DNA from: a virus
Taxonomy: Duplodnaviria > Heunggongvirae > Uroviricota > Caudoviricetes
Length of the DNA: 17,168 nucleotides
Direction: 5' to 3' (one strand)
Virus record (IMG/VR): IMGVR_UViG_2639763151_000002
In this document: piece by piece, positions 2,743 to 13,465 of the stretch
How positions within the stretch are numbered: the first letter of the stretch is position 1
How the letters are laid out: every line of letters starts with the position of its first letter
Notes under the pieces: generated by a model
The model's database searches: none
Seen by the model: only the letters and a program-made list of their open reading frames with translations
What the model was told of the DNA's origin: nothing
Made by a program: the position numbers and the translations under genes

Positions 2743-3069
2743 ATGCCTCATAACCCAAATACCTGGCTGGAGTTGGTCCAGAGCTGGTGGCGTGGAGACA
2801 CACCACTGGGCGCAGTGATTATGTCGATTGTTATGGCTGGATTGCGCATTGCCTATTTTGGCGGTGGTGGTGGGTGGAAGCGAAAAACGCTCGAGATTTT
2901 GCTCTGTGGTGCTCTGACGCTGACTTTTGCATCCGCTCTTGAGTATGTCGGATGGCCTAAATCTCTTTCTGTTGCCATTGGTGGCGGTGTTGGGCTGATT
3001 GGTGTCGATGCAATTCGTGGGGTTGCAATGCGAGTAATCGGTAACAAATTTGGTAGCTCGAAGGAGTAA
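2743..3069 (+). CDS. holin (class I-like, three predicted TM helices); not lambda S family
   Basis: 108-aa protein with three hydrophobic segments and a charged C-terminus, ending 3 nt before the endolysin R start. SD GAGGTGAGAG precedes the ATG. Confidence 0.7.
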   Translation: MPHNPNTWLELVQSWWRGDTPLGAVIMSIVMAGLRIAYFGGGGGWKRKTLEILLCGALTLTFASALEYVGWPKSLSVAIGGGVGLIGVDAIRGVAMRVIGNKFGSSKE

Positions 3070-4623: not shown

Positions 4624-5157
4624 TTAGCGTGGAAAGATTTGTGTAGTGTTCTGAATGCTCTCAGTAAATAGTAATGAATTATCAAAGGCATAGTAATATC
4701 TTTTATGTTCGTGGATATTTGTAACCCATCGGAAAACTCCTGCTTTAGCAAGATTTTCCCTGTATTGCTGAAATGTGATTTCTCTTGATTTCAACCTATC
4801 ATAGGACGTTTCTATAAGATGCGTATTTCTTGAGAATTTAACATTTACAACCTTTTTAAGTCCTTTTATTAACACAGTGTTATCGTTTTCTAACACAATG
4901 TGAATATTATCTGTGGCTAGATAGTAAATATAATGTGAGACATTGTGACGTTTTAGTTCAGAATAAAACAATTCACAGTTTAAATCTTTTCGCACTTGAT
5001 CGAATATTTCTTTAAAAATGGCAACCTGAGCCATTGGTAAAACCTTCCATGTGATACGAGGGCGCGTAGTTTGCATTATCGTTTTTATCGTTTCAATCTG
5101 GTCTGACCTCTTTGTGTTTTGTTGATGATTTATGTCAAATATTAGGAATGTTTTCAA
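4624..5157 (-). CDS. hypothetical protein, homolog of lambda right-end ORF lambdap78 (annotated elsewhere as putative envelope protein)
   Basis: 177-aa ORF in AT-rich DNA at the same distance from cosN as lambdap78, as recalled. Confidence 0.65.
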
Positions 5158-6084: not shown

Positions 6085-6096
6085 GGGCGGCGACCT
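6085..6096 (+). other. cosN, the 12-nt cohesive-end sequence GGGCGGCGACCT (terminase nicking site)
   Basis: Exact lambda cohesive-end sequence, flanked by lambda-like GACAGGTTACG upstream and CGCGG.TTTTC.CTATTTATGAAAATTTT downstream. Confidence 0.85.
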
Positions 6097-8721: not shown

Positions 8722-8911
8722 ACTGCAGGCGCTGCGTCAGGCGCGCCTTGATTTATTAACCGGTAAACGGGTGGTGTCTGTCCAGAAAGATGGTCGCAGA
8801 ATTGAATATACGGCGGCTTCTCTGGATGAGCTTAACCGGGCGATCAATGATGCGGAGTCGGTACTGGGGACAACCCGGTGTCGCCGTCGTCCGCTGGGAG
8901 TGAGGTTATGA
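8705..8911 (+). CDS. W: head-tail joining protein W
   Basis: 68 aa, homologous to lambda gpW (LTGKRV..VQKDGRR.E.TA.S). SD GGAGGA at 8695-8700. Confidence 0.9.
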   Translation: MVTVAELQALRQARLDLLTGKRVVSVQKDGRRIEYTAASLDELNRAINDAESVLGTTRCRRRPLGVRL

Positions 8912-10500
8912 AACGAACGCCTGTCCTGATTGATGTGAACGGCGTTCCGCTTCGTGAGAGTCTCAGCTACAACGGGGGCGGTGCAGGATTTGGCGGGCAA
9001 ATGGCTGAGTGGTTGCCACCGGCGCAGAGTGCCGATGCGGCCCTGCTGCCCGCGTTGCGTCTGGGGAATGCCCGGGCAGATGATCTGGTGCGCAATAACG
9101 GAATAGCGGCTAATGCGGTGGCTCTGCATAAGGATCACATTGTCGGGCATATGTTTCTGATCAGCTACCGTCCGAACTGGCGCTGGCTGGGGATGCGGGA
9201 GACCGCAGCAAAAAGCTTTGTCGATGAGGTGGAGGCGGCCTGGTCGGAATACGCCGAAGGGATGTTTGGCGAGATCGACGTGGAAGGAAAACGCACGTTC
9301 ACGGAATTTATCCGTGAAGGTGTGGGCGTTCATGCGTTTAACGGCGAAATCTTTGTGCAGCCGGTCTGGGATACAGAAACCACGCAGTTATTCCGTACGC
9401 GTTTTAAAGCTGTGAGTCCGAAACGGGTGGACACGCCTGGACACGGTATGGGGAACCGTTTTCTGCGGGCCGGTGTGGAGGTCGATCGATATGGCCGTGC
9501 CGTCGCGTACCATATCTGTGAGGATGATTTTCCGTTCTCTGGTAGTGGACGATGGGAACGGATCCCGCGTGAACTTCCCACCGGGCGTCCGGCCATGCTG
9601 CATATTTTCGAGCCGGTGGAGGACGGGCAGACCCGTGGGGCTAATCAGTTTTACAGCGTCATGGAACGGCTGAAGATGCTCGATTCCCTGCAGGCAACAC
9701 AGCTTCAGTCGGCCATAGTGAAGGCGATGTATGCAGCGACGATTGAAAGTGAACTTGATACCGAAAAGGCCTTTGAATATATCGCCGGCGCGCCACAGGA
9801 GCAGAAGGATAATCCGCTTATTAATATTCTGGAGAAGTTCTCCAGCTGGTATGACACGAATAACGTGACACTGGGCGGTGTCAAAATTCCGCACCTTTTC
9901 CCTGGTGATGATCTGAAACTACAGACTGCGCAGGATTCAGACAATGGATTTTCTGCACTTGAACAGGCGCTGCTGCGGTATATCGCCGCCGGTCTTGGCG
10001 TTTCCTACGAACAGTTGTCCCGTGATTACTCGAAGGTCAGTTACTCAAGTGCCCGCGCCTCCGCCAATGAGTCGTGGCGCTATTTTATGGGGCGGCGAAA
10101 ATTTATTGCGGCCCGGCTGGCCACGCAGATGTTTTCCTGCTGGCTGGAAGAGGCACTTCTTCGGGGGATTATTCGTCCGCCACGGGCACGTTTTGATTTT
10201 TATCAGGCGCGATCAGCCTGGTCACGGGCAGAGTGGATTGGTGCCGGAAGAATGGCCATTGACGGGCTCAAGGAAGTCCAGGAATCAGTGATGCGCATTG
10301 AGGCCGGACTGAGCACGTATGAGAAAGAGCTGGCGCTGATGGGCGAGGATTATCAGGACATTTTCCGCCAGCAGGTCAGGGAATCTGCAGAGCGGCAAAA
10401 AGCCGGACTCTCACGTCCGGTGTGGATATCGCAGGCGTATCAGCAGCAGATAGCGGAGAGTCGCAGGCCGGAAGAGGAGACAACACCACGTGAGACGTAA
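8908..10500 (+). CDS. B: portal protein B
   Basis: Start at ATG 8908 (MKRTPVLID...) overlapping the W stop; strong similarity to lambda gpB throughout (GNARADDLVRNNG, FEPVEDGQTRGAN, LQSAIVKAMYAATIESELDT...). Confidence 0.95.
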   Translation: MKRTPVLIDVNGVPLRESLSYNGGGAGFGGQMAEWLPPAQSADAALLPALRLGNARADDLVRNNGIAANAVALHKDHIVGHMFLISYRPNWRWLGMRETAAKSFVDEVEAAWSEYAEGMFGEIDVEGKRTFTEFIREGVGVHAFNGEIFVQPVWDTETTQLFRTRFKAVSPKRVDTPGHGMGNRFLRAGVEVDRYGRAVAYHICEDDFPFSGSGRWERIPRELPTGRPAMLHIFEPVEDGQTRGANQFYSVMERLKMLDSLQATQLQSAIVKAMYAATIESELDTEKAFEYIAGAPQEQKDNPLINILEKFSSWYDTNNVTLGGVKIPHLFPGDDLKLQTAQDSDNGFSALEQALLRYIAAGLGVSYEQLSRDYSKVSYSSARASANESWRYFMGRRKFIAARLATQMFSCWLEEALLRGIIRPPRARFDFYQARSAWSRAEWIGAGRMAIDGLKEVQESVMRIEAGLSTYEKELALMGEDYQDIFRQQVRESAERQKAGLSRPVWISQAYQQQIAESRRPEEETTPRET

Positions 10501-11995
10501 TCTTTCACACATTATTGCCGCAGCATTCAATGAACCGCTGCTTCTGGAGCCCGCCTATGCGCGGGTTTTCTTTTGCGCGCTCGGGCGCGAGATGGGGGCA
10601 GCAAGTCTTTCGGTACCACAACAGCAGGTACAGTTTGATGCTCCCGGAATGCTGGCTGAAACGGACGAGTACATGGCCGGAGGTAAACGACCGGCCCGTG
10701 TTTACAGGGTGGTGAACGGTATTGCTGTACTGCCGGTGACCGGCACGCTGGTGCACCGGCTGGGTGGTATGCGGCCATTTTCCGGAATGACAGGCTATGA
10801 CGGTATTGTCGCCTGTCTTCAGCAGGCAATGGCGGATAGCCAGGTGCGGGGCGTACTGCTGGACATTGACAGTCCGGGCGGGCAGGCCGCCGGCGCGTTT
10901 GACTGCGCTGACATGATTTACCGCCTCCGTCAGCAGAAGCCGGTCTGGGCACTGTGCAATGACACGGCCTGTTCTGCAGCCATGCTGCTGGCGTCGGCCT
11001 GCTCCCGACGGCTGGTTACCCAGACATCCCGTATCGGCTCCATTGGCGTGATGATGAGCCATGTCAGCTATGCCGGTCATCTGGCGCAGGCCGGTGTGGA
11101 TATCACGCTGATTTACTCAGGTGCGCACAAGGTGGATGGCAATCAGTTTGAAGCGTTGCCGGCAGAGGTTCGCCAGGACATGCAGCAGCGGATTGATGCG
11201 GCGCGCCGGATGTTTGCCGAAAAAGTGGCGATGTATACCGGTCTGTCTGTTGATGCCGTCACGGGAACAGAGGCTGCCGTTTTTGAAGGTCAGTCCGGCA
11301 TTGAGGCCGGGCTGGCGGATGAATTAATCAATGCGTCGGATGCCATCAGTGTGATGGCCACGGCGCTGAACAGTAATGTCAGAGGAGGCACTATGCCGCA
11401 ATTAACTGCAACGGAAGCCGCCGCGCAGGAGAACCAGCGAGTGATGGGGATCCTGACATGCCAGGAAGCGAAAGGACGTGAACAGCTTGCCACGATGCTG
11501 GCAGGACAACAGGGCATGAGCGTTGAACAGGCCCGGGCGATTCTGGCCGCGGCGGCACCGCAGCAGCCGGTGGCATCCACGCAGAGTGAAGCCGATCGCA
11601 TTATGGCGTGTGAAGAAGCGAACGGTCGTGAACAACTGGCGGCAACGCTGGCGGCGATGCCGGAGATGACGGTGGAAAAAGCCCGCCCGATCCTGGCTGC
11701 TTCACCGCAGGCGGATGCCGGACCATCACTCCGTGATCAGATCATGGCACTGGATGAGGCAAAAGGGGCTGAGGCGCAGGCTGAACAGCTGGCTGCCTGC
11801 CCGGGAATGACAGTGGAGAGCGCCCGGGCTGTGCTGGCTGCGGGATCAGGTAAGGCAGAACCGGTCTCTGCATCCACAACCGCCATGTTTGAACATTTCA
11901 TGGCGAACCATTCACCGGCAGCGGTACAGGGTGGCGTGCCACAGACGTCAGCAGACGGTGATGCGGACGTGAAAATGCTCATGGCCATGCCATGA
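10490..11995 (+). CDS. C: head maturation protease/scaffold protein C (ClpP/SppA-like protease domain), C-terminal region expanded by tandem repeats
   Basis: N-terminal two-thirds is similar to lambda gpC (AFNEPLLLEPAYARVFFCAL, NGIAVLPVTGTLV, KPVWAL.ND, GSIGVMM). It is 501 aa against about 439 aa in lambda. Confidence 0.9.
   Translation: MRRNLSHIIAAAFNEPLLLEPAYARVFFCALGREMGAASLSVPQQQVQFDAPGMLAETDEYMAGGKRPARVYRVVNGIAVLPVTGTLVHRLGGMRPFSGMTGYDGIVACLQQAMADSQVRGVLLDIDSPGGQAAGAFDCADMIYRLRQQKPVWALCNDTACSAAMLLASACSRRLVTQTSRIGSIGVMMSHVSYAGHLAQAGVDITLIYSGAHKVDGNQFEALPAEVRQDMQQRIDAARRMFAEKVAMYTGLSVDAVTGTEAAVFEGQSGIEAGLADELINASDAISVMATALNSNVRGGTMPQLTATEAAAQENQRVMGILTCQEAKGREQLATMLAGQQGMSVEQARAILAAAAPQQPVASTQSEADRIMACEEANGREQLAATLAAMPEMTVEKARPILAASPQADAGPSLRDQIMALDEAKGAEAQAEQLAACPGMTVESARAVLAAGSGKAEPVSASTTAMFEHFMANHSPAAVQGGVPQTSADGDADVKMLMAMP
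11393..11995 (+). CDS. Nu3: Nu3-like scaffolding protein, in-frame internal initiation within C
   Basis: Internal ATG at 11393 preceded by a strong SD AGAGGAGG at 11380-11387, in the same frame and with the same stop as C, as for lambda Nu3. Confidence 0.6.
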   Translation: MPQLTATEAAAQENQRVMGILTCQEAKGREQLATMLAGQQGMSVEQARAILAAAAPQQPVASTQSEADRIMACEEANGREQLAATLAAMPEMTVEKARPILAASPQADAGPSLRDQIMALDEAKGAEAQAEQLAACPGMTVESARAVLAAGSGKAEPVSASTTAMFEHFMANHSPAAVQGGVPQTSADGDADVKMLMAMP

Positions 11996-12031: not shown

Positions 12032-12379
12032 ATGGTGACGAAAACCATCACTGAACAGCGTGCGGAAGTACGTATTTTTGCCGGTAATGATCCGGCTCAT
12101 ACCGCCACAGGCAGCAGCGGGATTTCTTCTGCAACACCGGCTCTGACGCCCCTGATGCTGGATGAAGCCACCGGGAAACTGGTGGTCTGGGACGGACAGA
12201 AAGCCGGTAGTGCGGTTGGCATACTGGTACTGCCGCTTGAAGGCACAGAGACGGCGCTGACGTATTACAAGTCGGGAACCTTTGCGACGGAGGCAATCCA
12301 CTGGCCTGAAAGTGTGGATGAACACAAAAAGGCCAACGCCTTTGCTGGCAGTGCCCTGAGTCACGCGGCGCTGCCGTAA
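12032..12379 (+). CDS. D: head decoration protein D
   Basis: 115 aa with DPAHTAT...TPLMLD...WDG...VGIL...YKSGTF...FAG, matching lambda gpD. SD AGGAGG upstream. Confidence 0.9.
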   Translation: MVTKTITEQRAEVRIFAGNDPAHTATGSSGISSATPALTPLMLDEATGKLVVWDGQKAGSAVGILVLPLEGTETALTYYKSGTFATEAIHWPESVDEHKKANAFAGSALSHAALP

Positions 12380-12436: not shown

Positions 12437-13465
12437 ATGGGATTGTTTACGACCCGCCAGTTACTCGGTTATACCGAACAAAAAGTTAAATTTCGTGCGC
12501 TGTTTCTGGAACTGTTTTTCCGCCGTACGGTGAATTTCCATACCGAAGAGGTGATGCTGGACAAAATTACCGGAAAAACGCCGGTGGCGGCCTATGTCTC
12601 CCCGGTTGTTGAAGGAAAAGTGCTGCGTCATCGTGGTGGTGAAACCCGCGTGTTGCGTCCGGGCTACGTCAAGCCGAAACACGAATTTAATTACCAGCAG
12701 GCGGTTGAGCGCCTTCCTGGTGAAGATCCATCTCAACTGAATGATCCGGCTTACCGCCGTCTGCGTATCATTACCGATAACCTCAAACAGGAAGAGCACG
12801 CGATTGTCCAGGTGGAAGAAATGCAGGCGGTAAATGCTGTGTTGTATGGCAAATACACCATGGAAGGAGACCAGTTCGAGAAAATTGAGGTCGATTTTGG
12901 CAGGTCGACGAAGAATAACATCACTCAGGGTAGTGGTAAGGAGTGGTCAAAACAGGATCGTGACACGTTCGATCCTGCGCATGATATTGACCTCTACTGC
13001 GACCAGGCCAGCGGTCTTGTGAATATTGCCATTATGGACGGTACCGTCTGGCGTCTTCTGAATGGTTTTAAGCTGTTCCGCGAAAAACTGGATACCCGTC
13101 GCGGTTCAAATTCTCAACTCGAAACGGCAGTGAAAGATCTGGGCGCAGTGGTGTCCTTCAAGGGGTATTACGGCGATCTGGCCATTGTGGTGGCGAAAAC
13201 GTCTTATATAGCAGAAGACGGTATCGAAAAACGTTATCTTCCAGATGGCATGCTGGTTCTGGGGAATACTGCTGCAGATGGGATCCGTTGTTACGGTGCC
13301 ATTCAGGATGCTCAGGCGTTGTCCGAAGGTGTGGTGGCCTCTTCCCGTTATCCGAAACACTGGCTGACGGTAGGGGATCCCGCCCGTGAATTTACCATGA
13401 CGCAGTCCGCGCCGCTGATGGTGTTGCCGGACCCGGATGAGTTTGTGGTGGTACAGGTGAAATAA
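12437..13465 (+). CDS. E: major capsid protein E
   Basis: 342 aa, strongly similar to lambda gpE (PGYVKPKHE, IVQVEEMQAV, DTRRGSNS.LETAVKDLG, GDPAREFTM.QSAPLM). Confidence 0.95.
   Translation: MGLFTTRQLLGYTEQKVKFRALFLELFFRRTVNFHTEEVMLDKITGKTPVAAYVSPVVEGKVLRHRGGETRVLRPGYVKPKHEFNYQQAVERLPGEDPSQLNDPAYRRLRIITDNLKQEEHAIVQVEEMQAVNAVLYGKYTMEGDQFEKIEVDFGRSTKNNITQGSGKEWSKQDRDTFDPAHDIDLYCDQASGLVNIAIMDGTVWRLLNGFKLFREKLDTRRGSNSQLETAVKDLGAVVSFKGYYGDLAIVVAKTSYIAEDGIEKRYLPDGMLVLGNTAADGIRCYGAIQDAQALSEGVVASSRYPKHWLTVGDPAREFTMTQSAPLMVLPDPDEFVVVQVK

Follow-up and report, generated by a model that had tools for sequence, protein, structure and literature searches.

A phage 21-type head protease/scaffold gene pair with an anciently triplicated core unit that probably supplies contact modules to the procapsid scaffold

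The IMG/VR virus record IMGVR_UViG_2639763151_000002 (Caudoviricetes) provided the 17,168 nucleotides (nt) of DNA analysed here, referred to as the window, in which the plus-strand open reading frame (ORF) 10490-11995 encodes a homologue of the lambda head protease C of 501 amino acids (aa), starting with GTG according to the ORF list. Judged by its sequence, the locus is a lambda C/Nu3 arrangement of the phage 21 gp5/gp6 subtype: an S49 peptidase domain, an internal scaffold start with a ribosome binding site, a position between the portal gene and the D/E genes, and three repeats corresponding to the Tri boxes of coliphage 21 were all found. In this protease/scaffold pair a core unit was triplicated long ago, and we consider it likely that its copies are helical contact modules, which would make the procapsid scaffold trivalent. 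The role of the unit in contacts, its partner, its autonomous folding and the effect of valency are what we infer from the comparisons given below.

The elements of the locus are listed here with reference to lambda, the Salmonella prophage Gifsy-1 and the two GenBank records of phage 21, M81255 and OL657228 (pLDDT, predicted local distance difference test).

10490-11995, plus strand: head maturation protease/scaffold fusion gene (phage 21 gene 5, to which it has 99.7% nt identity); its start overlaps the end of the portal gene
10925-11368, plus strand: S49 (SppA/ClpP-like) peptidase domain, aa 146-293 (Pfam PF01343, E=3.7e-35)
11382-11388, plus strand: Shine-Dalgarno sequence GAGGAGG of the nested scaffold gene, seen in the sequence and given as the gene 6 ribosome binding site in M81255 and OL657228
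11393-11995, plus strand: nested in-frame scaffold gene (lambda Nu3 homologue, phage 21 gene 6), 200 aa, with its ATG behind the Shine-Dalgarno sequence; a coding sequence in both phage 21 records
11429-11563, plus strand: repeat unit 1, aa 314-358, ENQRVMGILTCQEAKGREQLATMLAGQQGMSVEQARAILAAAAPQ; holds the M81255 'Tri1 box' (11460-11563) and is the closest of the three to the lambda unit (64% identical)
11564-11584, plus strand: linker 1, QPVASTQ, variable (29% identity to Gifsy-1, with gaps; pLDDT below 50)
11585-11710, plus strand: repeat unit 2, aa 366-407, SEADRIMACEEANGREQLAATLAAMPEMTVEKARPILAASPQ; holds the M81255 'Tri box' (11600-11710) and is 79-80% identical to Gifsy-1 unit 2
11711-11725, plus strand: linker 2, ADAGP, variable in the segment-wise comparison with Gifsy-1
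11726-11851, plus strand: repeat unit 3, aa 413-454, SLRDQIMALDEAKGAEAQAEQLAACPGMTVESARAVLAAGSG; holds the M81255 'Tri3 box' (11741-11854) and adjoins the tail, at the site of the single lambda-type unit
11852-11992, plus strand: C-terminal tail, aa 455-501, with a short predicted helix TTAMFEHFMANH and the hydrophobic C-terminal DVKMLMAMP; poorly conserved

The ATG at 11393 is the predicted scaffold start, identical to the annotated start of phage 21 gene 6, and it aligns with the start of N15 gene 6. Because this start is internal and in frame, the scaffold and the protease both carry all three units and the same tail. In the protease domain, Ser162 (nt 10973-10975) is the counterpart of lambda gpC Ser166 in an alignment with lambda, N15, Gifsy-1 and phiARM81ld; the lambda residue is reportedly the catalytic one (Medina et al. 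2010).

Three diverged protein repeats in the C/Nu3 region had been proposed in an earlier, sequence-only reading of the window, and they were confirmed. The peptides quoted in it are exact substrings of the ORF (aa 316-358, 368-407 and 415-454, i.e. nt 11435-11563, 11591-11710 and 11732-11851, within the interval 11420-11860 given for them). The profile-defined units listed above are 42-45 aa long, with start-to-start spacings of 52 and 47 aa, and are 46-56% identical to one another. Local alignments between them scored 101, 83 and 97, whereas shuffled sequences averaged about 26 (standard deviation about 5), with z values for the unit pairs of 15.5, 11.2 and 13.8, and none of 2000 composition-preserving shuffles reached the observed score. 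Moreover, two PHROG profiles of the one-unit lambda type, phrog_8399 and phrog_8940, match the 200-aa nested protein three times, each time in a different stretch. Ala, Glu and Gln are abundant in the region, and one could imagine that an alanine-rich, low-complexity composition has produced the similarity by chance. This explanation is refuted by the shuffles (z = 11-16), by the position-by-position conservation of the units in Gifsy-1 and other relatives, and by the occurrence of the unit, once per protein, in hundreds of distant homologues; its probability is practically nil.

The repeat acts at the protein level and is almost invisible in the DNA. Tandem Repeats Finder reported no repeat in the DNA, a generic repeat finder yielded nothing meaningful, and self-blastn aligned stretches of 86 and 54 nt at only about 70% identity, in agreement with the earlier claim that the copies have diverged at the DNA level. 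The dating of the duplication as old, and not the product of recent slippage, held as well: identity between units at third codon positions is only 33-40%, which is near saturation, as compared with 58-74% at positions 1 and 2. The same data bear on the suggestion that the stretch is a DNA- or RNA-level element (binding or recombination sites, or a structured RNA) and that the peptide similarity is a by-product. OL657228 indeed annotates two minus-strand CII binding sites in the scaffold gene (window 11398-11411 and 11632-11645). However, the CII pattern TTGYNNNNNNTTGY occurs 4 times in the window, with 3.96 occurrences expected by chance, and at this frequency the annotated sites are no evidence of a real site. 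As the nucleotides shared by the units fall mostly on codon positions 1 and 2, with near-random agreement at position 3, the DNA repeat finders are blank and Rfam has no match in the window, such an element is effectively refuted and retains a negligible probability.

The statements that lambda has one homologous unit and that C is here about 60 aa longer than in lambda also proved correct: the lambda unit quoted there is exact and present once, and the protein has 501 aa versus 439 aa in lambda (counted from the lambda GTG start), i.e. 62 aa more. One unit is likewise found in N15, phi80 and Aeromonas phage phiARM81ld, and three in phage 21, PhiR5_1 and Gifsy-1. Lambda C/Nu3 resembles the locus in gene order, the S49 domain, the nested in-frame start (GG.M), and the homologous unit and tail (TALDRLMQG...DLLNTPV in lambda), and its protease part is about 60% identical (172 of 284 aligned residues). 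By sequence the lambda unit is nearest to unit 1, whereas by position, beside the tail, it corresponds to unit 3. The Nu3 frame of lambda, taken from the aligned start, comprises 131 aa versus 200 aa here. In lambda, N15 and phiARM81ld a Ser/Thr/Ala/Gln-rich, low-complexity stretch of about 45 aa lies between the nested start and the unit, whereas the 21 type is devoid of it and unit 1 begins 12 residues after the nested start.

The age of the triplication is indicated by the relatives. The head protease STM2605 of Gifsy-1, a lambda gpC homologue, has three units in the same order, which are positional orthologues of units 1, 2 and 3 here (76-80%, 79-80% and 60-61% identity, respectively); it differs in that the scaffold part is 54% identical, with linkers and tail largely different. 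Unit 1 is 69-84% identical across five three-unit lineages, and between the window and Gifsy-1 or P0152, another relative, unit 2 is 71-80% and unit 3 60-61% identical. Since the units are positional orthologues in Gifsy-1 and P0152, the triplication is older than the split between phage 21 and Gifsy-1; the relatives with orthologous units are about 50% identical to the protein of the window. In two more distant three-unit lineages (P0154 and P0155) only unit 1 is still clearly matched by position, and units 2 and 3 no longer are. A comparison of phage 21 with Gifsy-1 by segment gave 76% identity for unit 1, 79% for unit 2, 60% for unit 3 and 70% for the protease domain, as against 29-40% for the linkers and 30% for the tail. 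Units that are well kept between divergent linkers show purifying selection on each unit as protein, and not on the linkers.

The triple repeat is not new, because M81255 marks Tri boxes at the same stretches: its 'Tri1 box', 'Tri box' and 'Tri3 box' in gene 6, described as "function unknown; putative", were placed in the window with the ungapped offset +7989. Our result is thus the rediscovery of an annotated phage 21 feature, supported there by two independent records. The gene matches genes 5/6 of both M81255 and OL657228 without gaps over 1506 nt, and several recently isolated phages match it likewise. Two aa differences separate it from M81255 gp5, A373V in unit 2 and P484A in the tail, and the window further differs from phage 21 in its prophage order with cos inside. 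The original phage 21 paper is that of Smith and Feiss (Gene, 1993); the Tri boxes are taken here from the GenBank annotation. About a third of complete E. coli genomes (1870 of 5426) carry the scaffold gene, and the full, colinear three-unit gene of 603 nt is present in 57 of 60 records sampled evenly down the ranking. In a phage collection, all 19 isolated phages of the lineage contained the complete three-unit region as one colinear match.

Beyond this lineage, the unit is the conserved core of lambda-type scaffolds and defines an uncurated domain. A word-indexed search with the 45-aa unit profile gave only short fragments, and 1.84 billion cluster representatives were therefore searched exhaustively with a profile, which yielded 456 proteins at E <= 0.001. 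Among the 143 representatives analysed, from the top 150 of these 456, exactly one unit is present in 125, at a median of about 50 residues from the C-terminus; 65 of the one-unit proteins have an S49 domain, and the remaining 60 are either fragments or short proteins that resemble scaffolds. Even in very divergent members, conservation of the scaffold region is highest in the motif ER.RI..IL...EAKGRE.LA..LA..PGMTVE.AK.ILAAAP, which is near-invariant from EAKGRE onwards. The unit has no Pfam or NCBIfam model, and no solved structure related to it in sequence was found in the PDB. The multi-unit proteins are those of the 21/Gifsy lineage and a few others. Two distant, short, scaffold-like proteins (P0188 and P0260) have two units each, with ATTT in place of PGMT in all four; in P0188 the two units share 64% identity, as against at most 50% with any unit of the window. 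This similarity, together with the common ATTT turn, indicates a duplication in an unrelated lineage, separate from that of phage 21, and a further protein (P0293) may represent a third independent one.

The number of units varies among close relatives. The 120 closest cluster representatives (82-99% identical) were classed by their whole or part units, as follows, the counts being those of cluster representatives and not genome frequencies.

Three full units: 440-721 aa, 24 representatives; the full-length form has 501 aa, and partial and fused sequences are included
Unit 2 minus 19 residues (about 2.5 units): 482 aa, 67 representatives; the index lists this protein in 3592 blocks, and the head module looks intact
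Two units: 451-452 aa, 24 representatives, with five different in-register junctions between units 1 and 2
Four units: 551 aa, 2 representatives
Larger internal duplication: 657 aa, 1 representative

The junctions of the two-unit alleles lie at aa 325|375, 328|378, 347|397, 350|400 and 356|405. Natural junctions in the series read QEA|NGRE, VEQAR|PILAAS and APQ|ADAG. At the level of sequence, the series shows in-register recombination and hybrid units carried in genomes, and it points to repeated unequal recombination between diverged units. Some of the two-unit alleles sit in visibly damaged prophages. In one of them, from E. coli O157:H7 (locus L010, 4801-5067; CP038421.1), only 88 aa of the E gene are left, directly next to tail genes, and in another (locus L012, upstream of 3001), which has a 451-aa allele, genes of the nin region stand where the portal and terminase genes should be. 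Two sequences of 721 and 577 aa (P0111 and P0117) are fusions, in which C runs through unit 3 (...AVLAAGSG) and is followed by unrelated sequence, rich in Gly, His, Ser and Thr in P0117; they are probably rearranged prophages or assembly joins.

Such alleles with 2, about 2.5, 3 and 4 units would suit the view that the units are mainly a spacer or ruler, in which the length of the chain from the protease or N-terminus to the tail is what matters and the extra units replace the low-complexity spacer of lambda. The absence of that Ser/Thr/Ala/Gln-rich stretch of about 45 aa from the 21 type agrees with this. However, a spacer would be expected to evolve fast, yet units 1 and 2 have changed less than the protease domain, and it is the true linkers and the lambda spacer that are poorly conserved; the distance from protease to tail, moreover, is not the same in lambda and 21. 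We therefore regard a role mainly as a spacer as quite improbable.

Structure prediction with AlphaFold2 suggests, with modest confidence, that the unit is a small three-helix module, composed of a helix, the EAKGRE loop, a helix, the PGMT turn and a third helix. The model of the 200-aa scaffold, built on a shallow alignment, has a mean pLDDT of 53, with helical units and with linkers and most of the tail below 50. For unit 3 plus the tail, modelled with 50 diverse homologues, the mean pLDDT is 60; the unit helices are at residues 4-11, 20-27 and 34-44, a tail helix at 53-65 and a C-terminal helix at 84-89. Foldseek found nothing significant outside the family in the PDB and BFVD. The folds considered for the unit included UBA/CUE-like three-helix bundles and RuvA domain III, and we base no conclusion on the fold hits. 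Helices 2 and 3 of unit 3 (LAACPGMTVESARAVLAA) are similar to the consensus of the helix-hairpin-helix (HhH) nucleic-acid-binding motif, and three such motifs would provide three contact points for DNA or RNA. The Pfam HHH model matches there with E=0.0063 (16.8 bits), and with E=0.095 on the whole protein. Nevertheless, 16.8 bits is below the Pfam gathering threshold of 24 bits (PF00633), only 1 of 30 homologous unit-plus-tail sequences has any HHH match, no significant fold match was obtained and the glycines of the motif (GhG) are replaced by G-M-T. The HhH motif was rejected on these grounds, and we consider it very improbable.

A role in contacts between proteins is consistent with what is known of lambda. 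Lambda Nu3 associates with itself, interacts with C and B and gives a two-hybrid signal with E; the portal is not incorporated without it, and procapsids contain it until the protease eliminates it, before DNA is packaged or while this takes place (PMC3224144). A scaffold core unit of about 42 aa was triplicated in tandem long ago, leaving copies joined by short variable linkers, and we propose that each copy would mediate contacts between proteins, through which the scaffold, together with the accompanying protease, builds the core of the procapsid. The contact could be self-association, binding to the major capsid protein or the portal, or both. The 21-type scaffold would accordingly be trivalent, whereas that of lambda has one module behind a flexible, low-complexity spacer of about 45 aa.

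In herpesviruses (UL26/UL26.5) and in phage P2 (gpO), a protease and a scaffold have a common C-terminal region; scaffold contacts bring the protease into the procapsid, and the scaffold is then destroyed. These pairs follow the same nested logic as the locus described here; they differ in that their coat-binding element is the extreme C-terminus, and no relationship in sequence or fold was detected. We know of no tandem repeat of a core module described for the herpesvirus or P2 scaffold pairs. The scaffold of P22, which is internal too, has a coat-binding domain that is likewise a helical contact module, about 40 aa long, and the analogy is one of function only: that domain is single and very C-terminal, while the modules of the window are internal and triple. 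A kinship with the C-terminal helix-turn-helix of P22 gp8 was considered and dropped, as no similarity in sequence or fold to it was found.

Several points weigh against contact modules in triplicate. The extreme C-terminus binds the coat protein in the scaffolds of P22, 80alpha and herpesviruses, which would make the tail, not the units, the coat binder here. By this analogy the tail is the more likely coat-binding element, and self-association, or contact with the portal or the protease, would be more probable for the unit than binding to the capsid protein. The structural models are of low confidence in both cases, with no significant fold match. Finally, the common allele that has lost half of unit 2 in an intact-looking head module means that full trivalency may be unnecessary. 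The suggestion in the earlier reading that the repeats may alter the valency or the length of the scaffold is a reasonable one. It is conceivable that scaffold valency depends on how many units there are, with effects on the assembly of procapsids (nucleation rate, fidelity and scaffold stoichiometry); we put this forward tentatively, as a rather doubtful extension of the contact role.

Another possible role of the units is that of substrate cassettes, in which the S49 head protease would cut the EAKGRE loop, and three units would serve mainly to have the longer scaffold chopped into small peptides able to exit the procapsid. The portal N-termini of lambda and of the window both appear to have L-R-E just before a conserved GGG motif, a likeness that may be related to the cleavage giving lambda B*. 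Among very divergent phages, nothing in the scaffold region is better conserved than the EAKGRE loop, as expected for a fit to a conserved active site, and lambda gpC is known to degrade Nu3 (PMC3224144). On the other hand, the arginine of the loop is not invariant (GAE in unit 3 here and GHE in Gifsy-1 unit 1), and the conservation of Gly, Ala and hydrophobic residues suits a structural turn equally well. We consider a cassette function unlikely; cleavage would not exclude binding by the same units.

The neighbourhood of the gene pair corresponds to that of a lambda-type head module. The portal ORF (8878-10500) is located upstream; downstream are an ORF of the HDPD family (12032-12379), for a decoration protein of the lambda D family, an E-like major capsid ORF (12437-13465) and FI. 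The order portal, C/Nu3, D-like, E-like, FI was also found in relatives. The window as a whole is the late region of a phage-21-like prophage, with Q, lysis genes, cos (at about 6085), and head and tail genes. The linear phage 21 record starts at about window position 6085, which places cos inside the window and shows its gene order to be that of a (permuted) prophage.

The sequence upstream of about 2515 is absent from the closest phage records. Two minus-strand ORFs, 1427-2455 (342 aa) and 844-1419 (191 aa), lie there between Q (474-851) and the holin gene (2743-3069), in the place that stx occupies in Stx phages. Neither has a Pfam match; they belong to PHROG families of unknown function, and they match both candidate defence components of PADLOC PDC-M53 (M53A, E=1.3e-31; M53B, E=1.7e-54). 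A further minus-strand ORF, 4624-5157 (177 aa), with a DUF1398 domain (E=3.4e-46), is situated between the Rz lysis gene and cos.

As a discovery the triple repeat has little weight, being annotated in phage 21 and located in a gene that about a third of complete E. coli genomes contain. What is added here is an uncurated domain at the core of the scaffold, its independent duplication elsewhere, and a natural, in-register series of copy numbers. To our knowledge, nobody has mapped which part of Nu3 contacts what, and the best-conserved piece of the scaffold, for which there is neither a Pfam or NCBIfam model nor a solved structure, offers a handle on lambda-type head assembly. If the number of units does set valency, the prophages with 2-4 units, together with the one-unit lambda type, would constitute a ready-made test system for the assembly of T=7 capsids, and the unit would be an uncurated domain family that defines lambda-type scaffolds.

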